From a virus (taxonomy: Duplodnaviria > Heunggongvirae > Uroviricota > Caudoviricetes): DNA of 64,000 nt. Below the pieces are notes generated by a model, which was given only the letters and a program-made list of their open reading frames with translations, did not search any database and was not told where the DNA came from. The translations under genes and the position numbers were made by a program. This document shows positions 4,993 through 58,830 of the stretch, one piece after another (positions within the stretch are counted from its first letter, which is position 1; every line of letters starts with the position of its first letter). The stretch lies in the IMG/VR virus record IMGVR_UViG_2537561978_000005; one strand, written 5' to 3'.

Positions 4993-6378
4993 TTGAACAA
5001 ATCAGTTACTTCTGCGCTTTCCGAGGCCGCAGATATTAACAGCGTCATTGCTCTGGTTTCTTCATTAGAGAGGAAAGAAACACGCCTGGGGCGAAGTAGC
5101 TACGTAGTCACCAGCAAAGGTGCAGAGGTAAAGACGGCTTTTAAGGTCGTTGATGCCAGCAGTCTGATCATTTCGAACAACCTTGACGGTATGATTAACC
5201 CGGCCTTCCCGGAAGAACTCCAACCACGAGATCGTACCCGGCTATCCAGCAAACTCCAGGTTAACCGTATTGCCTCCAATTTACGCCCGGCACAATTAAC
5301 GGATTCCGGTATGAGCAGCCACGGAGCGCCGATAGTTGGTCCGGACAACGTTGTTGAATCCGGCAACGGAAGGAGTATGGGTATCTGGCGTGCCTATGAG
5401 CAAGGACAGGCGGATGAGTATCGCCAGTACCTGATCGACCATGCGAAAGAGTTTGGTCTGAATCCTGACGAAATTTCGCAAATGTCTATGCCCGTACTAG
5501 TGCGAGAAAGACTCACAGATGTAGACCGCGCTCAATTTGCCCGCGATTCAAACATTAGCGATCTGCAAGAGATGGCAGCAAGTGAAAAAGCGTATGCGGA
5601 TGCGCAATTTCTCACTGAGAGCGTCATGGCGCTATTTAATCCTTCAGATGATGGAAATCTGCTGGCGCGGTCCAATGATGCGTTTATTCGTGCGTTTTTG
5701 CGCGAAATTGGCGATACAGCGACGGCAGGCTTGCTTACTGCCGATGGGCGTCCCACGAAACAGCTTATCGATCGCATCCAGAATGCAATTTTTGCCAAAG
5801 CGTACAAGGATGAAAGGCTTGTTCGGCTAGTGTCGGAAGAGCCAGATCCGGAAATGCGTAATATCCTGACCGCATTAAATACGGCAGCCAGCGATTTTGC
5901 GCAAATGCAGTCGCTGTCTGGCGACGCTCACCATGACGCAGTAACAGGCTTAGTGGACGGTATAGAGCAGGTTAATGGCCTGGATAAACAGGCTATTGCA
6001 GCGCTACAGGAAGCAATTAACCTTGTTCGTGAAGCAAAAGATAACGGTCAGGCAGTAGAAGAGGTGATCGCACAGCGTGGATTGTTTGGAGATAGCACTC
6101 CGGAAGCAGAAGCGCTTGCTCTGTTTATTGTTGCCAACAACCGAAGCGCTAAGCGAATGGGGGCCGCTTTCAAGAAACTGGCGCAAAAAATTAACGATGA
6201 ACTTATTCACCAACAACAAGCGTTAGGCGATATGTTCGGCGGCGGAGATGTCGATCTGCGTAGCATTTTATCTGCCGTTTCTGATGAAATTGAGGGTGAA
6301 TTTGGCGAAGGGAAAGGTCTGAACTTTGCTATGTTTGAAAATTCTACAGTTCTAAATAATTGCAGTATGGAAAACTAA
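4993..6378 (+). CDS. DdrB-like protein, first of two ORFs covering the ddrB position
   Basis: 461 aa, TTG start with AAGGGGA RBS; followed after a 64-nt gap by a second ORF; together they occupy about 3.1 kb. Confidence 0.4.
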   Translation: MNKSVTSALSEAADINSVIALVSSLERKETRLGRSSYVVTSKGAEVKTAFKVVDASSLIISNNLDGMINPAFPEELQPRDRTRLSSKLQVNRIASNLRPAQLTDSGMSSHGAPIVGPDNVVESGNGRSMGIWRAYEQGQADEYRQYLIDHAKEFGLNPDEISQMSMPVLVRERLTDVDRAQFARDSNISDLQEMAASEKAYADAQFLTESVMALFNPSDDGNLLARSNDAFIRAFLREIGDTATAGLLTADGRPTKQLIDRIQNAIFAKAYKDERLVRLVSEEPDPEMRNILTALNTAASDFAQMQSLSGDAHHDAVTGLVDGIEQVNGLDKQAIAALQEAINLVREAKDNGQAVEEVIAQRGLFGDSTPEAEALALFIVANNRSAKRMGAAFKKLAQKINDELIHQQQALGDMFGGGDVDLRSILSAVSDEIEGEFGEGKGLNFAMFENSTVLNNCSMEN

Positions 6379-6442
6379 GCCAACCGCTGAAATCACATAC
6401 TGATTATGCTGCCGCAAAACTGGAAACAATTTGCGGTGATTC

Positions 6443-8125
6443 ATGGCAACGAAAGACAAAAACAAAGGCTTTCTGTCAGCATTGAAGAAAGCCTTCAACG
6501 GTGGTGATGTTACGCCCGCCGATCCGGTCGTTTTTACGAGCGGGCATAGTGTCGTTGCTCGTTCCGGCCTGTCTGCTTTACGTCCAGGTATACTGGGGAG
6601 CAACAGCGATGGCATGACGAGTGCAGCAGATTCAATTTCTTTATCCGCTGAACTGCCCGGCGAGCGCCTGCAAAAGTACAACATCCTGGAAACGATGGCT
6701 AAAAGCCCGACTATCTCGACGGCTTTAAACATTCACATTGCACATGCGCTTGCGCCTTCAAAAAAAACCGGACAAGCATTCATCCTTTCGCCAAAGGATG
6801 GTTCCGATGCTGAGGCAGTAAGTAGATGTGAAGAGTTAACCGCTGATTTGGGGGCGATGATTAATGACGGACTTCCTTCATGGGCCATGATTATGGCTAT
6901 CTTTGGGGTGTCTTATGTCCGACCTTATGCTGAACAGGGCAGGGGGATAACAGGCATTGAGTCCAGTTATTACACTCTGCCACACTTCGTCCAGGAGTTT
7001 TATCGTGGTAGCCAGCTGGTAGGTTTCAGTGGTGATTACATTCTGGATACGCATAGTTTGCGCAGAGTAATAACCGAACCGTGGAATCTGGTTTCCATGA
7101 AAAATCCCTATTGGACGCCACAGCATAAAGTTATTCCGGTTAGCTACGGCACAAAAGGGTACTCACTGTTAAGTGATCAGGCTGATAAGCCGTTAATGGA
7201 GACGCAGAATTACGGAACTTCATTCCTGGAATACAGCTATGAACCTTACCTTAATTTATGTGCTTCGCTCGCCGCGCTGAAATCAACGCGAAATAATGCA
7301 GCCAAAATTGACCGCCTGATTGCTCTTACGACGAACACACTGGACCCGGTTAATGCGGCGAACTATACGCGTGGCGTCAGCCAGGCATTGAAGCGTCATA
7401 GTGACCTGGTGGCGCAAAGGTCGATTAATGCCAACGCTATTCCGACTGTGCTTAACCATCTGATACCTGTTATGGGAGACGGGAAGAACGGCATCACCAT
7501 TGATACGCAATCCATACCCGCAGATATCAGTGGTATCGAAGACGTTATGTTTCACCTCCGGCAGCTTGCTGCAAGCCTCGGCATTGACGCAACAATGCTT
7601 GGCTGGGCTGATCAGATGAGCGGAGGGCTTGGAGAAGGCGGCTGGCAGCAAACTGCTATCCAGGCTGCATTGCGTGCGAACTGGATCAGACAGGCCGCCC
7701 AGCGAACTATTTATCGGCTTCTGGACATTCACCTCGCTTATAAATACGGCAAGGTTTACACCGAAACAAACCGCCCTTATGACGTGCAATTCAACTCAAT
7801 GAACACTGCTATCCAGGAAGAGGAAAACCGAGAACTGGATGCACGCGCCAACTTTGTTGCTGTCATCTCCCAAATTATGGACCAGATCCAGAACAACCCG
7901 AAACTGGCTGGTAGCGACGCGTTTATGCGTTATCTGTTCACTGAGCAGTTGCACATCGACGATGACACTCTCAACACCATGATCAAAGAGTTTAAGGCGA
8001 ATGAATCAGAGCAAAACAACGAGCATGGTATGTACGAATCCGCGCCGTTGTCGTCCGGTGACGATCCGGAAAACTGGACGCCAGAACAGTTAATAAACTT
8101 TGCAAAATTTGTGATGAGCAATTAA
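6443..8125 (+). CDS. DdrB-like protein, second ORF
   Basis: 560 aa; ATG 6443 preceded by weak GGTGA; separated from the upstream ORF by a stop and a CCGCAAA...TTTGCGG stem-loop. Confidence 0.4.
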   Translation: MATKDKNKGFLSALKKAFNGGDVTPADPVVFTSGHSVVARSGLSALRPGILGSNSDGMTSAADSISLSAELPGERLQKYNILETMAKSPTISTALNIHIAHALAPSKKTGQAFILSPKDGSDAEAVSRCEELTADLGAMINDGLPSWAMIMAIFGVSYVRPYAEQGRGITGIESSYYTLPHFVQEFYRGSQLVGFSGDYILDTHSLRRVITEPWNLVSMKNPYWTPQHKVIPVSYGTKGYSLLSDQADKPLMETQNYGTSFLEYSYEPYLNLCASLAALKSTRNNAAKIDRLIALTTNTLDPVNAANYTRGVSQALKRHSDLVAQRSINANAIPTVLNHLIPVMGDGKNGITIDTQSIPADISGIEDVMFHLRQLAASLGIDATMLGWADQMSGGLGEGGWQQTAIQAALRANWIRQAAQRTIYRLLDIHLAYKYGKVYTETNRPYDVQFNSMNTAIQEEENRELDARANFVAVISQIMDQIQNNPKLAGSDAFMRYLFTEQLHIDDDTLNTMIKEFKANESEQNNEHGMYESAPLSSGDDPENWTPEQLINFAKFVMSN

Positions 8126-32769: not shown

Positions 32770-33242
32770 AAACTTATTACCCATCTCTGAATTGTTACCC
32801 GTCTTCCTATCCAGAATTATCCGGGAAGCTGTTAGCTCTATTAGCTAAAGCACCTACGGAATGGTTTAAGCCAGTCGTTATCAATCCACACTTCCTGGGT
32901 TACGGATCTGTTCGCACTCGTAACGAACTCAAAAACCTACTGGCGCATGGATTCATTCGACACCGTGCCGGGAAAGGCTATCAGTTAGCGATTGCGCCAG
33001 AAGAGGCCGTGCGGCTATTCGCATATCGTGACAGCCAGACAAAAACTCGGGTAATAGCTCAAATACTTCATAACGGCAGCACCTATGCCCGCCAGTTTGG
33101 CGGCGACACGTCGCAGTTCTTGCGGGCGGTGCGATCGCTGGATGAGCAAGGAGTTATTGAAAGTTCCTGTCTTCCTGTTCCTACCGTTCCACATATCAAA
33201 CGTCGGGTTTACACCTTCACGCAGAGAGCTAAAAAACAATGA
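32766..33242 (+). CDS. Hypothetical protein
   Basis: About 158 aa; GTG 32766 chosen over track start 32760 for SD spacing. Confidence 0.45.
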   Translation: MKTYYPSLNCYPSSYPELSGKLLALLAKAPTEWFKPVVINPHFLGYGSVRTRNELKNLLAHGFIRHRAGKGYQLAIAPEEAVRLFAYRDSQTKTRVIAQILHNGSTYARQFGGDTSQFLRAVRSLDEQGVIESSCLPVPTVPHIKRRVYTFTQRAKKQ

Positions 33243-33733
33243 TTTACGTAAAAGTGAAACGCCTACATCCGGCAGCAAAACTTCCAGCTTATGCCACCTC
33301 CGGATCGGCGGCGATGGATTTTGAGGCTGTTGAAATAAAACCATGCGTCGATAGCAATGGTGCAATTTCCTCAAGCTGGTGGGTGTATACCGGACTGGCT
33401 ATGGAGATCCCGCCCGGCTGGTGTCTGAAACTCTATCCGCGATCAGGATTGGGCTGCAAAAAACATACTCGCCTGGCTAACTGCGTAGGAATTATCGACT
33501 CCGATTATCGCGGCGAAATCATGGCAAAACTGATTACTGATCCCGGCGGGGAAGGCGTTTGTCTCAAGCCTGGAATGGCTGTCATGCAAGGAATTTTTGA
33601 GCGTGTTGAACAAGTCTCACTAGTCGAGGTTGAGGAACTCAACGAAACGGAGCGTGGTGCTGGTGGCTTTGGTAGCACATCGGAAGGCCACTTTGAAATT
33701 AAGCGTTCACCGCTTCAGTACGAAAAGTTATAA
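33239..33733 (+). CDS. dut: dUTP diphosphatase (dUTPase)
   Basis: Motifs AAMDFEA, RSGLG, IDSDYRGE, RGAGGFGSTS in canonical order. Confidence 0.8.
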   Translation: MIYVKVKRLHPAAKLPAYATSGSAAMDFEAVEIKPCVDSNGAISSSWWVYTGLAMEIPPGWCLKLYPRSGLGCKKHTRLANCVGIIDSDYRGEIMAKLITDPGGEGVCLKPGMAVMQGIFERVEQVSLVEVEELNETERGAGGFGSTSEGHFEIKRSPLQYEKL

Positions 33734-49461: not shown

Positions 49462-49677
49462 ATGGCTACTATCCCTACCCCAACTCATTCTGAATTTATC
49501 TGGCGTTTCTATTCCTGCCAAAAGCACCTGTATATCTGCGTCATGGCTGCTACCGAATCAGAGGCGCGCTCATACCTTCCCGAAGAACCCTGCATTTTTG
49601 CTGCTCGCTTCACTCTTGATGCGATGGAGATCCTCAATTACTGGAATCTGCCGATGAACTGCGTGGAGGTGCGCTGA
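49462..49677 (+). CDS. Icd-like small protein (second copy)
   Basis: 71 aa; AAAGGAGG RBS; paralogue of 10714..10938. Confidence 0.5.
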   Translation: MATIPTPTHSEFIWRFYSCQKHLYICVMAATESEARSYLPEEPCIFAARFTLDAMEILNYWNLPMNCVEVR

Positions 49678-50618
49678 TGAATCTGTCCATCTCTCAAAAA
49701 GCGACAATGACCAGCATTGAGATCGCGGAGCTGGTAGGAAGTCGCCCAGATAGTGTGAAGAGAACTATCGAAACACTGGCTAAAAAGAGTGTGATCCAAT
49801 TTCCACAATCTGTGGAAATTGAAAATAAACAATCAGTTGGCCCTCGTCGATTTTCCAAGGCTTACATCTTTGAAGGCGAACAAGGAAAACGAGACAGCAT
49901 CATTGTCGTCGCGCAGCTCTCTCCGGAATTCACCGCCCGGCTGGTGGACCGCTGGCGCGAACTGGAGAATGCCCGGGTACAGTTAAAATCAAAAGCCGAA
50001 ATCCTGGCTGAAATGGCGCAAATGCATCTTGAGCATGAACGCCGGATCAACGCCGTAAATGCCCAGGTAGCCGAGGTATCAGCACAAGTATCGATGGTCG
50101 CTGAAACCGTCGAGCAAATAAAGAAAGGCAATATTCCGGAAGGCTACATTGGCTACCGCCAGTTGGCGGCGAAATGTGGCCTGACTGAAGCCAAATGTCG
50201 CAACCTGGTTAACGCTTACCGGATTCCCACCGATACGCATGAGTTTTTAACTCCAGATGGTTTGCTTGCGCGACGCTCCATTGTGGCCCTGGCCCCCTTC
50301 CGGAAAGCCTTTAAGCAGGTGATGTCAGAGGCAGAACCACGCAATAAACGCTGGTATCATCCAAAGATGGGGATGTTTCAGGCAATCCACCATCCTGTGC
50401 CTGAAAGTCCAAAGGCAAACCTGTCGTTGCATACCGCCAGAGAGAGGATTAAAACAGGCTATGCAATCGTATGCCGTCGAGCATCCTGGCCTGAAGGTGT
50501 ATGGGTGTGGCCCGAAGGTGGATCACGAAAGCACTGGCGCACTATCCGGGATGGGAAAATCCATGCGATTGATTTAGCTCCAGAGGATGTTGTTGCTACG
50601 GACTGGATTGTTAGTTAA
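49677..50618 (+). CDS. Rha-family antirepressor (Ant-like), intact
   Basis: 313 aa; MTSIEIAELVGSRPDSVKRTIETL pRha motif; start overlaps icd stop. Confidence 0.65.
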   Translation: MNLSISQKATMTSIEIAELVGSRPDSVKRTIETLAKKSVIQFPQSVEIENKQSVGPRRFSKAYIFEGEQGKRDSIIVVAQLSPEFTARLVDRWRELENARVQLKSKAEILAEMAQMHLEHERRINAVNAQVAEVSAQVSMVAETVEQIKKGNIPEGYIGYRQLAAKCGLTEAKCRNLVNAYRIPTDTHEFLTPDGLLARRSIVALAPFRKAFKQVMSEAEPRNKRWYHPKMGMFQAIHHPVPESPKANLSLHTARERIKTGYAIVCRRASWPEGVWVWPEGGSRKHWRTIRDGKIHAIDLAPEDVVATDWIVS

Positions 50619-50626
50619 TTACTGTT

Positions 50627-50648
50627 GCCCCGGCCTGTCCGGGGCTTT
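50627..50648 (+). terminator. Terminator-like hairpin
   Basis: GCCCCGG-cctgt-CCGGGGC followed by TTT. Confidence 0.45.
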
Positions 50649-50677
50649 AACTACTAAATAACCGGATTCTCCGCACG

Positions 50678-50965
50678 ATGAAGAAAATAGATTTCACTTA
50701 CTCTGCTGCCACAATCCAGCGACGTTTCAGTCTCATAAGGGAAGTGGAACTATCAAAAAACTGCTATCAAATTCTACTGGATGAAGAGTTTTCACTGATG
50801 GTTATAGCAGAAAAATTGGCTATGCCGAATGACCGACACAAGGTCATAGCCAGCCTCGATCTGGTGACAAACAGATACTGGGAGACAGAGGAACTACATG
50901 AAGCGGGAGTAATTCGTGGCCTGATGGAGAATTCCGTTCCCCGTCGTTATAGTGTGATGAGCTAA
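50678..50965 (+). CDS. Hypothetical protein
   Basis: 95 aa ORF, weak RBS. Confidence 0.4.
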   Translation: MKKIDFTYSAATIQRRFSLIREVELSKNCYQILLDEEFSLMVIAEKLAMPNDRHKVIASLDLVTNRYWETEELHEAGVIRGLMENSVPRRYSVMS

Positions 50966-51111
50966 AACTCACCTGCACACCGTCAGGCCCAACGCAAATA
51001 AATGAAACATCCCGCTCTTGGTGTTTCAGTGAAATAGCTCATTTTTAGCTTGGAAGCAACTTGATTATGAGCTAAGCCTGACATACACTTCAGCGAGAAA
51101 ATGATCAAGTT

Positions 51112-51153
51112 AAAGACACAAAAGCTCTGTTTTAACAGAGCTTTTGTGTCTTT
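51112..51153. repeat. Perfect 18-bp-arm palindrome (hairpin) at cargo boundary
   Basis: AAAGACACAAAAGCTCTG-ttttaa-CAGAGCTTTTGTGTCTTT. Confidence 0.8.
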
Positions 51154-51289
51154 AAAACATAGATATCATGCCATATATAGTGCCAAAATTAGTTTTAGAC
51201 ACTATATATATTATAAAGGTAAAAACCGCTTCTACTTTTAACATCCACAGAAAAAGAAAGCGGTTATAGATAAGGGAAAAGGAGGGGTT

Positions 51290-51595
51290 ATGCTCTATGC
51301 GGTTCCTCAGCAAGCTTCTGATTCTTTGAAGTTAATCAAGACTGTACTTCAGCTTATAGCATCTCAACAAGAAGTGTCACAGCAGTTAAAGTTACGGGTT
51401 TATGAGGTGATCAGAGAAGCCTCAAACTTAAGTGTAGATAAAGGTGATCAATTACAGATTCCTTCTCACAGAGAGTCCATCTCGCTCGCGGTAGAGATAC
51501 GCCACACTAAGGCGCTCGCCCAGGTGCTAACCAAAGTAACTAGCGAAGATATGTTAGAACCCGTAATGGCCCGGAATGTATTAGAGTACATTTAA
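51290..51595 (+). CDS. Hypothetical small protein, first gene of AT-rich operon
   Basis: 101 aa, strong RBS AAGGAGGGG; stop overlaps next start (TAATG). Confidence 0.6.
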   Translation: MLYAVPQQASDSLKLIKTVLQLIASQQEVSQQLKLRVYEVIREASNLSVDKGDQLQIPSHRESISLAVEIRHTKALAQVLTKVTSEDMLEPVMARNVLEYI

Positions 51596-52668
51596 TGCTT
51601 GCATTTACACAACTTACATTAGTTCGAAATAAGCTAAGGGAGATATCAGAATCTCCCTATTTTTCTAAAGACATGCATGAATATCTTGCTGTTCTACAAG
51701 AAGCGGTAGATAAGCTCTATGAAAACCATGTGAATGTTGCTGATAAAATAATTGCGGATTGTACTTTTTTTATCACCGATGCAGTTAATTTTTTCACTGG
51801 CAGTACTACAAAGAAAATTCCCTACGAGATTGTTTATTGCTTAAATGATGCCTGTAAAAAATGGATAAGTGAAAAAACACTTATAACCACAGCCCTATCT
51901 CCAGATATGCATGGGTTTTATTTTAAGTCTGTAAACAAGAATTTGTATTCTTTATTTGATGAAGTTTTAAATGTCAAATTCGAGGTCGAATTAATTCAGA
52001 TTTCATTACCTGAAATGTACAGAAGACGACCATTATGCTCTATACCTTTATATCACGAATTGGGACATTTCGTTGATATTAGCAAAGGTATTTCTGAGCT
52101 TGCCTGTCTTAACTATCGTTCCAAGGACAAAGGCACACTTCCAGGACCAGAATGGAGTAATCTACCTGATGTTATTTGGATAAATCATTGCAGAGAATAT
52201 TTTGCAGATCTATTTAGTGCCCAATTTATTGGAAAAAGTGGGGTAGATTTCTTATACAAATTAGCTGGCTCTCATCCTGCAAGCTATACTCACCCATCCA
52301 CAGAAGATAGAGTTAAAATTGTAAGCGACTTTTTGAACAAAGTGGAAAATCCAGTTGTTGGCATGTTCAATGCTGTGATATCAGCCTTACATAAGGGTGG
52401 GCAGATTATTTCTCCTTGTTTGACATTGCCGACACCTTTGCTTGATGTGAAATCAGCTTTTGATAATGTGCGTCCTTTTGTTATTCGCGACCACAATGAA
52501 ATGCATGCTTTTATTAACAGCAGCTGGCAGTACTTATGCTCTGAATGGGAAAAACCTACGGGTATATGGTCTGGGTTGTCAAAAGAAGCCATAGAAAAAA
52601 CTATAAATGATTTGGTTGAAAAATCGATTCGAAACGTAATGATTCTTGAAAAATGGAGTGCACAATGA
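51595..52668 (+). CDS. ImmA/IrrE-like (M78-type) HExxH zinc-metallopeptidase-domain protein
   Basis: 357 aa; PLYHELGHFVD followed about 40 residues later by HCREYFADLFSAQF, matching the HExxH...E..FA..LL arrangement of M78 peptidases; about 35% GC. Confidence 0.5.
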   Translation: MLAFTQLTLVRNKLREISESPYFSKDMHEYLAVLQEAVDKLYENHVNVADKIIADCTFFITDAVNFFTGSTTKKIPYEIVYCLNDACKKWISEKTLITTALSPDMHGFYFKSVNKNLYSLFDEVLNVKFEVELIQISLPEMYRRRPLCSIPLYHELGHFVDISKGISELACLNYRSKDKGTLPGPEWSNLPDVIWINHCREYFADLFSAQFIGKSGVDFLYKLAGSHPASYTHPSTEDRVKIVSDFLNKVENPVVGMFNAVISALHKGGQIISPCLTLPTPLLDVKSAFDNVRPFVIRDHNEMHAFINSSWQYLCSEWEKPTGIWSGLSKEAIEKTINDLVEKSIRNVMILEKWSAQ

Positions 52669-53282
52669 ATCTCCTAAGCAAAGCTGAATTGCTGCAATAT
52701 TATGAATCAGAAGAACCTGAGTCGTTGTTCATTGAACCTCTTCTAAATAAAAACCAAATTGGAAACTTCACCATAGACCTTAGACTTGGTTACGATTTTT
52801 TAGTGTCTATTATGACAAGGAAGCCGTCAATAGAGTTAATTCCCTCAAAAAACAATGATACTCATCAACCAATCAGAACATTTTTCCAGGAAACAAGGAG
52901 AGATCTTGGGGATAGGTTCATTGTTTACCCGAATCAAGTGGTACTGGCAACAACATTAGAATATGTTTGTTTGCCACCAGATTGCTACGCTGATGTATTG
53001 TCCAGAAGCAGCTATACAAGGCTTGGTCTTTCATTAAATACCATGATACAACCAGGGTACAGAGGCTGTATATCTTTAGAGTTATTTAATCATGGGAATA
53101 GCCCTGTAGAACTTATTGTTGGATCTCGCATATGTCAAATTCGTATATTCAAGAATGAAACTGTCGGTGAATACATAAGTCATGAGTCTCACAGGAAATA
53201 TTTCGGAAATGTGAGGCCAACCGTCTCAGCAGCAGAAAGTGATAATGAATTAAATATGCTGGAAAAGATCCGACAAAAATGA
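52653..53282 (+). CDS. dCTP deaminase-family (dUTPase superfamily) enzyme
   Basis: 209 aa; IDLRLGYDF, LATTLEYVCLP, SRSSYTRLGLSLNT, GYRGCISLELFNHGNSPVEL, RICQIRIF align with E. coli Dcd core blocks from memory; 16-nt overlap with upstream gene. Confidence 0.55.
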   Translation: MECTMNLLSKAELLQYYESEEPESLFIEPLLNKNQIGNFTIDLRLGYDFLVSIMTRKPSIELIPSKNNDTHQPIRTFFQETRRDLGDRFIVYPNQVVLATTLEYVCLPPDCYADVLSRSSYTRLGLSLNTMIQPGYRGCISLELFNHGNSPVELIVGSRICQIRIFKNETVGEYISHESHRKYFGNVRPTVSAAESDNELNMLEKIRQK

Positions 53283-53370
53283 AGACTTTAATGCTTTATA
53301 TTATAAAAACATACAGCGACAACGCAGCCACCAAGATGTGTTGTCGCCATGTTCAAAGTGCTAACACAGT

Positions 53371-53763
53371 TTAAAAATCACCTGCGCGCTGTTTTTCAAG
53401 CACAGATTTAACATTTGGCACTTTCCCTTTAAAAGAATGGAAAGTGCCACATTTTTCTGTTTTAACTTCGCGCAGAGCTTCGCCATCGGCGTTCTGCCAT
53501 TGATGGGATAATGTCATATCACCGCGAGAAGGAACATCCAGCGAGTACAGCGTGTAAGTTCCCCCCATCTCCGCATACTCCTGGAACACATAGCTCATTA
53601 CGTCAGATTCAGTTTTTCGGTGTACGTTATCAACCTTATTCCCATTCAGAAATATGGCATCTGGATAGATTTTTATATCAAACCGACCGCACTTAACTTG
53701 TAAATTTCCGGCGCTCGCGATCAAAGGGAAAGACGCCAGTAAAGCAATTGTCAATCTTTTCAA
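53371..53763 (-). CDS. Secreted hypothetical protein
   Basis: 130 aa, signal peptide MKRLTIALLASFPLIASA, TTG start after GGAGG. Confidence 0.5.
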   Translation of the reverse strand: MKRLTIALLASFPLIASAGNLQVKCGRFDIKIYPDAIFLNGNKVDNVHRKTESDVMSYVFQEYAEMGGTYTLYSLDVPSRGDMTLSHQWQNADGEALREVKTEKCGTFHSFKGKVPNVKSVLEKQRAGDF

Positions 53764-57206: not shown

Positions 57207-57935
57207 TCATCTTTTTGAAAAATCAATTTCCGTTTTATCAAATAAATTTGAAATATCAGCAACCAATTTATTAAAATCATGATCGCCATTATAAAGCGAA
57301 GTCTTCTTTATTGCCATTACAAAATCATATAACTTTTCTGGGGAGTCAATACCAACCCCTCTACTTTTAAAAAGCTCAATGATAACTCCAACATCATCAT
57401 ATAATAATTTTATTGCCGCCATAATCTCTTTTTGCTGCCTAAGCAATCTCTCAAGTTCATTTTTATTTTCATCCATAATTCTTTTGTTGAATTGTGTATC
57501 ATTAATACTTTTTATTATTTCAGTCTCTTTTATTTGCAACGCCTTTCTTTTATTTTGATCCATGTCGGCATCCAAATACCTTATCTCTGTATATATTTTA
57601 CTTGTTAGCTTTGATACGCAAAGAGTGACAATCGGAGCTGCAATTGATGCAATAATTCCAAAAATAAATGGCAAGCAAAAATGATAAAACCAAGGAGACA
57701 AAACGCCTTCATAAACTAGAGGAATCTTACCTCCAACAAATGTTACAGATAAAGTATATAGGATATCATCCTTTGACTTCATCAATATTAGTATATCTTT
57801 CCAATTAATAATTAGAAAAGAAATGAATATATATGCAAACACTTTATTAAAAAGCTTGTCTTTTATGGCATCTCCAAAAGATACTTTGATTAGATCATTT
57901 TCAGTCAATTTTTCTGTTGATGAATCTGTATTCAT
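57207..57935 (-). CDS. AT-rich membrane protein, candidate abortive-infection-type effector
   Basis: 242 aa, about 29% GC; two TM helices then Lys/Glu-rich coiled coil. Confidence 0.55.
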   Translation of the reverse strand: MNTDSSTEKLTENDLIKVSFGDAIKDKLFNKVFAYIFISFLIINWKDILILMKSKDDILYTLSVTFVGGKIPLVYEGVLSPWFYHFCLPFIFGIIASIAAPIVTLCVSKLTSKIYTEIRYLDADMDQNKRKALQIKETEIIKSINDTQFNKRIMDENKNELERLLRQQKEIMAAIKLLYDDVGVIIELFKSRGVGIDSPEKLYDFVMAIKKTSLYNGDHDFNKLVADISNLFDKTEIDFSKR

Positions 57936-58118: not shown

Positions 58119-58457
58119 TCAGGCTGCTTTTTTATTCAGGTTCCGCTGAGAAATAAATTTTTCAGCAGTATTGATACGACTTAACTCTTCCTGAACGCGC
58201 ATATCATTTTCGACTTCCCACAGGTCTACTGCGGTCTGAAGATTAATCCAAAAATCTACAGAAGTATCGAATGCTTTTGCCAGGCGATATGCCATATCCA
58301 TCGTTAGCTTACGATTATTATTAACAAGAGCACTTACGGTGTTACGATGAACATGAAGTATTTCTGCTAACTCGTTGATCTTCAGCTCTAACGGCTCCAG
58401 GTATTCGTACAGCAGGATATCACCTACGGTCGTCGGTTTTCTGGTTGCCTGTTTCAT
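58119..58457 (-). CDS. higA: HigA-type antitoxin (XRE-family HTH)
   Basis: 112 aa; HTH LAEILHVHRNTVSALVNN; downstream of the toxin as in higBA. Confidence 0.7.
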   Translation of the reverse strand: MKQATRKPTTVGDILLYEYLEPLELKINELAEILHVHRNTVSALVNNNRKLTMDMAYRLAKAFDTSVDFWINLQTAVDLWEVENDMRVQEELSRINTAEKFISQRNLNKKAA

Positions 58458-58527: not shown

Positions 58528-58830
58528 TTAGTATTTGTGAGGGTCGAGATACAAGTCCTCGGCCTTTCCGTTAACCCACCTAAAAATTAACCTATATTGC
58601 TTATTCACCCTTACTGATGAATAGCCATTTAGCTTCCCTGACAGTTCCTCATACCGATTACCTGGTGGTGATCTTAAATCCTTACAGGTAGTTGCGGCAT
58701 TGATAATGTCCAACTTCCGTGACAATGTCATATGAATATCAGGAGGTATCTTTCTATGTGGTGTTGAAAATTCAAAAAAATCATCAAGCCACGCATCCCT
58801 GAAATCCTTTATGTTAATTTTTTTGGTCAT
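58528..58830 (-). CDS. higB: HigB-type toxin (RelE/ParE superfamily)
   Basis: 100 aa; C-terminal GYSSVRVNKQYRLIFRWVNGKAEDLYLDPHKY resembles the HigB core. Confidence 0.65.
   Translation of the reverse strand: MTKKINIKDFRDAWLDDFFEFSTPHRKIPPDIHMTLSRKLDIINAATTCKDLRSPPGNRYEELSGKLNGYSSVRVNKQYRLIFRWVNGKAEDLYLDPHKY

Follow-up and report, generated by a model that had tools for sequence, protein, structure and literature searches.

A mobile three-gene module carried by P1-like phage-plasmids, combining a divergent dCTP deaminase with a predicted M48-like protease, looks like an uncharacterised conflict system

Why should an element that already encodes a canonical dUTPase carry, in an AT-rich patch, a second enzyme of dUTPase-like fold that is coupled to a predicted peptidase? 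This question is raised by nucleotides 51290-53282 of a tailed-phage (Caudoviricetes) sequence, IMG/VR record IMGVR_UViG_2537561978_000005, which was analysed as a stretch of 64,000 nucleotides (nt; hereafter the window, to which all coordinates refer). Three genes, here called the trio, lie there on the plus strand: gene 1 (51290-51595; 101 amino acids, aa), gene 2 (51595-52668; 357 aa) and gene 3 (52665-53282 and 205 aa from the start that we prefer, or 52653-53282 and 209 aa if the longest open reading frame, ORF, is taken). From what follows, the trio looks like an uncharacterised conflict system. A preliminary description, made from the DNA letters alone, had pointed to these three coupled, same-strand ORFs and to the TAATG stop/start junction of genes 1 and 2, and both are present, the latter at 51593-51597. 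Genes 2 and 3 also overlap, as it stated, but the 16 nt that it gave apply only to the longest ORF. This junction is most likely a 4-nt ATGA overlap with the start at 52665, because PGAP uses this ATG in identical plasmids, gene 3 orthologues align mostly from about residue 4-5 (some from further in) and a GGAG lies 7 nt 5' of it.

The product of gene 3 is a divergent member of the dCTP (deoxycytidine triphosphate) deaminase family. It matches PF22769 (E=1.3e-30, 107 bits against a cut-off of 27), TIGR02274, the NCBIfam equivalog model for dCTP deaminase (113.3 bits against a curated cut-off of 92.8), and PDB chains of Dcd with E-values down to 1.9e-16. In the alignment the Glu of SLELFNHG, which the preliminary description had picked out as catalytic, stands opposite E138, the catalytic residue of E. 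coli Dcd; profile searches and alignment alike thus place the protein within the dCTP deaminase/dUTPase fold that had been proposed, with its catalytic residues in place. Conservation was assessed in 61 gene 3 orthologues from related loci, aligned with E. coli Dcd and numbered by the 209-aa form (residues 17-156 of the Dcd reference sequence agree with the PDB alignment). R118, S120, E143 and N146 are invariant (61/61), and S119 and R123, the equivalents of Ser111 and Arg115, are each found in 59 of the 61. The family shares its fold with Dcd (E. coli, PDB 1xs1) and with the bifunctional Dcd-Dut enzymes of M. jannaschii and M. tuberculosis, and it keeps the RSS triphosphate motif, the Arg115 and Glu138 equivalents and the C-terminal KY motif of Dcd.

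In other respects, gene 3 stands apart from these enzymes. Identity to them is about 25-30%, and the family has invariant residues of its own (R82, R83, Q95, Q162 and R188-P189) and a conserved C-terminal extension with the pattern D197-x-[DE]-L. Its gene always accompanies those for a protease and a small protein, on mobile DNA, and is never a lone metabolic gene. A further difference concerns motif 3. In the dUTPase superfamily the Asp of this motif contacts the deoxyribose and acts as the general base for hydrolysis. The corresponding residue (D128 in E. coli) is Q133 in 59 of the 61 orthologues and His in the other two. As the Asp is replaced by Gln, dUTPase or bifunctional activity is disfavoured, and the family looks like a deaminase that would be unable to act as a dUTPase; the loss of this Asp does not by itself argue against deamination. 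We also observed that the gene 3 core matches recent PDB chains of 155-156 aa annotated as 'dCTP deaminase' (8y1w, 9ln0 and 9ln3) with E-values of about 1e-9.

What, then, is the role of gene 2? The preliminary description had read it as an ImmA/IrrE-like (M78) peptidase, on the strength of HELGHF followed by E..FA..F. Both motifs are present (HELGHF at residues 154-159, with E201-Y-F-A-D-L-F downstream), but they are no M78 signature in this protein: no match to PF06114 or to the PADLOC capP and RmrA models was obtained at E<=1, and none to an M78/ImmA model of NCBIfam. The M78 profiles do match true neighbours elsewhere, for genuine M78 proteins with a helix-turn-helix (HTH) domain, RmrA and CapP-like, stand beside the trio in other genomes. 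For the window protein itself, the sole Pfam match is Peptidase_M48 (PF01435; E=0.01, under the gathering threshold). Across 31 homologues, reaching down to 32% identity, H154-E-L-G-H158, E201, F203, D205, H233-P234 and R239 are invariant, and this is the M48 pattern of an HExxH, a Glu ligand about 45 residues further on and a C-terminal HPxxxxR. When scanned singly, 15 of the 31 homologues match M48 (best E 2.5e-5) and nine match the anthrax lethal factor peptidase family (ATLF). Gene 2 is therefore better described, from its sequence family, as a soluble M48-like gluzincin, a predicted zinc protease with novel flanking helical domains. The gluzincin core spans about residues 95-250; it is preceded by an N-terminal three-helix bundle and followed by a helical domain at the C-terminus, with an N-x-L-x-EKS-x-RN core (consensus NDLVEKSIRN) that is invariant in the 31 homologues. 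These domains, and the lack of membrane segments or a TPR domain, set gene 2 apart from the M48 proteases Ste24/ZMPSTE24, HtpX and BepA. A whole-chain structure search with Foldseek against the PDB returned nothing at E<=0.001, and a profile search of PDB sequences gave a chance match only. The family is a small one, with 512 clusters (at 50% identity) among 1.84 billion proteins.

The first gene is the least familiar of the three. Its product is small, acidic and helical; it belongs to no known family in Pfam, NCBIfam or PADLOC, the one PADLOC match being at chance level, and a search for an HTH detected none. An ORF of 100-110 aa nonetheless abuts gene 2 upstream in almost every related locus, and iterative hidden Markov model searching (jackhmmer) joins 53 of 64 such ORFs to gene 1 of the window. 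Gene 1 is the fastest-evolving member of the trio: identity to the Dickeya proteins is 64% for gene 1, 67% for gene 2 and 82% for gene 3. This order of rates is in keeping with roles as sensor or bait, switch and effector, respectively, and we propose that gene 1 is an inhibitor, bait or adaptor.

Do these three genes belong together? The preliminary description had suggested looking for the trio in other genomes, and linkage was examined in 65 species genomes (loci) that carry the gene 2 family, the range of which spans Alpha-, Beta-, Gamma- and Deltaproteobacteria, Nitrospirota, Leptospirales and Bacteroidota. A gene 3 orthologue directly follows gene 2 in 62 of the 65 (one of the exceptions is a contig end), and the stops and starts of the trio genes overlap in related loci as well. 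Because gene order and overlaps recur across so many unrelated genomes, the arrangement goes far beyond chance. Furthermore, genes 2 and 3 are fused in a protein of 631 aa (P0235; 2050-3945 of locus L075, metagenome SRR15526474), with a 101-aa ORF directly upstream. The fusion was found on two contigs and supports a physical partnership, although a sequencing frameshift could also account for it.

The linked trio moves. Its flanking genes fall into 373 clusters among 465 neighbouring proteins, so that flanks are almost never alike, which is typical of an independently moving module. Carriers include integrase islands and, in Shewanella, a TniQ/Csy2 CRISPR-associated transposon; in two loci (L005 and L082) the trio occupies stable chromosomal sites without mobility genes. 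Four other loci (L036, L068, L079 and L081) retain genes 1 and 2 intact but have lost the deaminase gene, carry it in truncated form (69 aa in L079) or have something else in its place, which reflects either decay or effector exchange. Immediately downstream lie DUF6527 and ThiF genes in L068 and a resolvase gene in L081.

The setting of the trio elsewhere is mixed and appears, in part, defence-like. In Dickeya it adjoins RosmerTA (RmrA, 4.6e-105), and an RmrA-like neighbour occurs in Pantoea too. QatD (7e-95) stands beside it in Proteus, and PD-T4-6-type kinases (9.3e-136), type I restriction-modification, MADS, BrxL and a caspase-STAND protein are found in other neighbourhoods. Divergent genes for a CapP-like peptidase and for an HTH protein lie upstream in the alphaproteobacterial loci. 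The genes of bacterial ubiquitination-like (Bub) operons, to which we return below, are also frequent neighbours.

How might such a module work? We suggest, tentatively and with slightly less than even confidence, that the trio is a self-contained mobile conflict module acting by protease-gated dCTP depletion and flooding with deoxyuridine triphosphate (dUTP), in anti-phage defence or in superinfection exclusion. Gene 3 would be the effector, a divergent trimeric Dcd-type enzyme that converts dCTP to dUTP and, with Gln in place of the hydrolytic Asp of motif 3, would stop before deoxyuridine monophosphate (dUMP). Gene 2 would be the switch, and gene 1 both the substrate of this soluble protease and the inhibitor or bait that restrains the deaminase. 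Once some trigger had activated gene 3, dCTP would be drained and the cell flooded with dUTP, and the replicating DNA of an invader would be starved or uracilated. In the leader, a terminator-like hairpin and an operator-like repeat might keep basal expression insulated. We favour this protease-gated model because the catalytic sites of both enzymes are conserved, the genes are linked and, in one case, genes 2 and 3 are fused, the rates of evolution follow the expected order, and the trio is mobile and found in contexts of an apparent defence type.

Several observations weigh against this model. The preliminary description could match the pairing to no named system, and in PADLOC-DB v2.0.0 no family matches gene 2 or gene 3, the match to gene 1 being of chance level only. 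Since no PADLOC model matches, a role in defence rests on guilt by association, and housekeeping genes flank many of the trio islands. The Asp-to-Gln change, at a position that contacts the sugar, could shift the specificity of gene 3. The loss or degradation of gene 3 in four loci where genes 1 and 2 persist would be unexpected if it were the sole output. Finally, the dUTPase that had been noted elsewhere on this element (ORF 33239-33733) is indeed one (PF00692, E=1.7e-14), and it would blunt the effect of dUTP, at least for the element itself.

How does the proposed module compare with systems that are already known? The dCTP deaminase of Tal et al. and AvcD reportedly have a zinc-dependent cytidine-deaminase fold, with fusion to a kinase-like domain or gating by a small RNA. 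By contrast, gene 3 has an unrelated dUTPase-like fold and no PADLOC match, and a gate made of an M48-like protease and a small protein has no counterpart in those defences. What the trio would share with dCTP deaminase defence (10.1101/2021.04.26.441389) and with AvcD/AvcI (10.1101/2021.03.31.437871) is the predicted loss of dCTP and a location on mobile islands, and we rate it as belonging with the conflict systems based on nucleotide pools. The logic would resemble that of ImmR/ImmA, DdrO/IrrE, CapH/CapP, RmrA and BlaI/BlaR1, in which a small partner and a dedicated HExxH peptidase control a dangerous output; unlike these switches, gene 2 has no PF06114 or CapP match, and no HTH is detectable in the acidic gene 1 protein. 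Should the trio prove to be a defence system, dCTP-depletion immunity would gain a second enzyme family without structural relation to the first (trimeric Dcd, with a dUTPase-like fold), together with a new type of gate, the M48-like protease with a small protein. Furthermore, the Asp-to-Gln change predicts that dUTP, and not harmless dUMP, would build up and lead to uracil poisoning of invader DNA, for which we found no report in the defence literature searched.

The carrier of the window copy also bears on function. The region is 99-100% identical to non-mobilizable plasmids of about 90-96 kb from E. coli and Salmonella. These encode ref, icd, an ant-like gene, mat, and tail and baseplate genes, and are therefore P1-like phage-plasmids, a class of element by which modules of this kind are moved between E. 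coli and Salmonella. The trio is present in 12 of the 52 matching plasmids, the remainder sharing the right flank only. In the trio-free P1-like plasmid NZ_CP029365.1 (locus L002) the alignment runs to 50954 and resumes at 53369, with 30 bp between. This alignment and the drop in GC content delimit a cargo segment of 2.4 kb, comprising the leader and the three genes (about 50955-53368, plus strand), that lies between the end of the immI-type (icd/ant) operon and a convergent backbone gene. The AT-rich patch reported in the preliminary description is real, with a GC fraction of 0.32-0.41 over 51000-53400 and of 0.46-0.52 upstream.

How common is the trio on such elements? It occurs in eight of 5426 complete E. 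coli genomes, every copy being plasmid-borne, and in 3 of 2.9 million viral contigs in IMG/VR; DNA and protein searches found it in none of 50,697 phage records. Given this low frequency and its absence from sister plasmids, the trio is cargo and not a core function of P1, in agreement with the view of it as phage cargo in the preliminary description, which had also considered whether it might be a conserved core module of P1-like phages. As a separate matter, the PHROGs families phrog_27938, phrog_24479 and phrog_23419 are near-identical to the three proteins, despite the lack of any match in those 50,697 records, and the PHROGs deaminase family covers only the last 79 residues of gene 3. Also missing from the trio-free plasmid L002 are the ant-like gene (49677-50618) and the greater part of a 95-aa ORF (50678-50965); the comparison of 49582-50861 with L002 thus shows that these phage-plasmids vary at the end of the immunity operon.

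Could the trio simply serve nucleotide metabolism? It might be a helper that supplies dUMP and deoxythymidine triphosphate for replication of the element itself; gene 3 would make dUTP, and gene 2 would be a nucleotide pyrophosphatase that depends on a metal. PGAP does name gene 3 dcd, and with the hydrolytic Asp lost, some partner would be needed to remove dUTP. UTP pyrophosphatase activity has been reported for HExxH proteins in a related clan, for example YgjP of E. coli, and a similar activity could be imagined for gene 2. However, the YgjP/DUF45 family does not match gene 2, for which Pfam gives just the peptidase families M48 and ATLF. Copies of dcd and dut are already present in the hosts, and one of dut on the element; moreover, gene 1 would be left without an explanation. 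The distribution of the trio is extremely patchy and island-borne, and it was absent from the phage collection searched. With no copy in 50,697 phage records and only 3 in 2.9 million viral contigs, a metabolic role in lytic phages is disfavoured, and we regard a metabolic helper in general as improbable.

The same distribution bears on whether the trio serves the phage-plasmid as counter-defence, by altering nucleotide pools or by degrading a host defence protein. Its carrier here is temperate and it adjoins the immunity (icd/ant) operon, as might be expected of such a function. Yet viral collections contain hardly any copy of the trio, most copies are chromosomal and lie in non-phage islands, and some are found under CapP regulators of the type that serves host immunity. 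Counter-defence is accordingly, in our estimation, very improbable.

If the trio is instead a conflict module with a dangerous output, how is its expression controlled? The leader contains a perfect palindrome (51110-51155), with arms of 22 nt (51110-51131 and 51134-51155) separated by 2 nt. The preliminary description had correctly called it perfect, but it gave the arms as 18 nt and took the palindrome to bound the operon, whereas it lies inside the insert. It consists of an A-tract, a GC-containing stem and a T-tract. The palindrome is nearly identical in Dickeya and Pantoea, whose trio proteins are only 64-67% identical; in Proteus and Shewanella the sequence is a different one and is still a perfect palindrome. 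Among the leaders, RNAalifold finds double-sided changes at 12 of 21 pairs. Most likely, the palindrome would act as a bidirectional intrinsic terminator that insulates the trio from icd/ant (immI) read-through, and its covariation would also fit a symmetric operator. Only the gammaproteobacterial clade has the long palindrome; ordinary terminators or short repeats are found at other loci.

A promoter-like site, TTAAAA-18-TATAGT (51152-51181, plus strand), lies in the leader as well and is overlapped by a second inverted repeat, ATATATAGTG..CACTATATAT (51173-51188 and 51194-51209, plus strand), at the -10-like TATAGT. The half-sites of this second repeat are kept in all seven aligned gammaproteobacterial leaders, Aeromonas included, and a G-C to A-U change in it is compensated. 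The segment 51152-51209 is the probable promoter and operator of the trio. No Rfam family accounts for the leader, every match being far under the gathering score. Elsewhere, short GTTGACA/TGTCAAC inverted repeats lie upstream of gene 1 in alpha-, beta- and deltaproteobacterial loci (L007, L009, L017, L026 and L031); these may be mere -35 boxes or a shared operator.

An insulated leader with an operator-like repeat would also suit a tripartite toxin-antitoxin or addiction module that serves to stabilise its plasmid or island, in which gene 3 would be the toxin, gene 1 a labile antitoxin and gene 2 a dedicated protease, without any sensing of phage. The small acidic first gene, the tight coupling and the location on plasmids and islands are in keeping with this, as is the presence of other toxin-antitoxin systems nearby (HigBA in the window and RosmerTA in Dickeya). 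On the other hand, a self-encoded protease that destroys its own antitoxin would be unusual for an addiction module, and the trio is also found at the stable chromosomal sites of L005 and L082. We consider pure addiction rather unlikely; toxin-antitoxin and abortive-infection roles can, in any case, coexist.

A further possibility is raised by the neighbourhoods. The commonest neighbouring family is a ThiF E1 (21 loci), followed by Multi_ubiq and DUF6527 proteins, and Bub operon genes occur within a few kb of the trio in 22 of the 65 loci. Domain scans reveal the architecture of Type I Bub (formerly 6E/DUF6527): Multi_ubiq and Prok-E2_E (BubAB), Prok-JAB and ThiF (BubCD), and DUF6527 (BubE). 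Eleven alphaproteobacterial loci have all of these genes on the same strand, separated by short gaps, in the order BubAB-BubCD-BubE-gene 1-gene 2-gene 3; the remaining arrangements are divergent or downstream. The Bub-linked loci are spread over at least seven clades of the gene 3 tree. The trio and Type I Bub, which can thus share one transcription unit or island, are both associated with CapP-type regulators and have a rare and patchy occurrence on islands in common (10.1101/2024.11.21.623953); they have no protein family in common, and the trio is free of Bub in most loci. In nine alphaproteobacterial loci (L039, L042-L044, L046, L047 and L049-L051) a conserved protein that neither Pfam nor PADLOC matches, about 205 aa long, is encoded at about 5980-6607 on the minus strand of the locus, between a CapH/CapP-like regulator pair and the Bub-plus-trio operon.

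Might the trio then be the missing effector or physiological target of Type I Bub? As an output or target arm of Bub pathways it would regulate, or be regulated by, conjugation of a ubiquitin-like protein (Ubl). For example, BubA might be conjugated to the protein of gene 1 or gene 3, or the M48-like protease might process conjugates; Ubl conjugation would then gate the protease-controlled deaminase, and the stand-alone copy of the phage-plasmid would be a stripped-down derivative, the minimal, Bub-independent form of an immune effector of a new class, which would remove dCTP and at the same time poison DNA synthesis with dUTP. Besides the recurrent linkage, the 11 single-strand operons, the confirmed Type I architecture and the spread over separate clades, this idea gains from the statement in the defining papers that the targets and biological role of Bub are unknown (10.1101/2024.11.21.623953; PMC13373217). 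According to these papers, protection against phage has yet to be demonstrated for any Bub operon (10.1101/2024.11.21.623953, 10.1101/2024.11.21.623966, PMC13373217). Neither a deaminase nor an M48-type peptidase is mentioned in the text of the Bub papers, nor in the operon tables of one of them (10.1101/2024.11.21.623953, 10.1101/2024.11.21.623966, PMC13373217), and we found no description of the trio, or of its link with Bub, in the literature searched.

However, about two thirds of the loci, the window and the enterobacterial clade among them, have no Bub genes within 10 kb: none flank the insert in the window, and none were found in that clade, so that the trio must work unaided there. Two defence systems with a common regulator and island could also account for the adjacency. 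An effector or target role in Bub pathways thus seems unlikely to us, both as a general account of the trio and in the specific form in which conjugation gates the deaminase. The trio, physically joined to Bub operons in many lineages, provides concrete candidate partners for them.

Finally, the window contains a second AT-rich patch (29-30% GC) at 57207-57935 on the minus strand. The 242-aa protein encoded there has hydrophobic segments, and its C-terminal half is coiled-coil-like; PADLOC gave no match for it, and its gene may be another cargo gene. It adjoins the HigB/HigA-like toxin-antitoxin pair (58119-58457 and 58528-58830).

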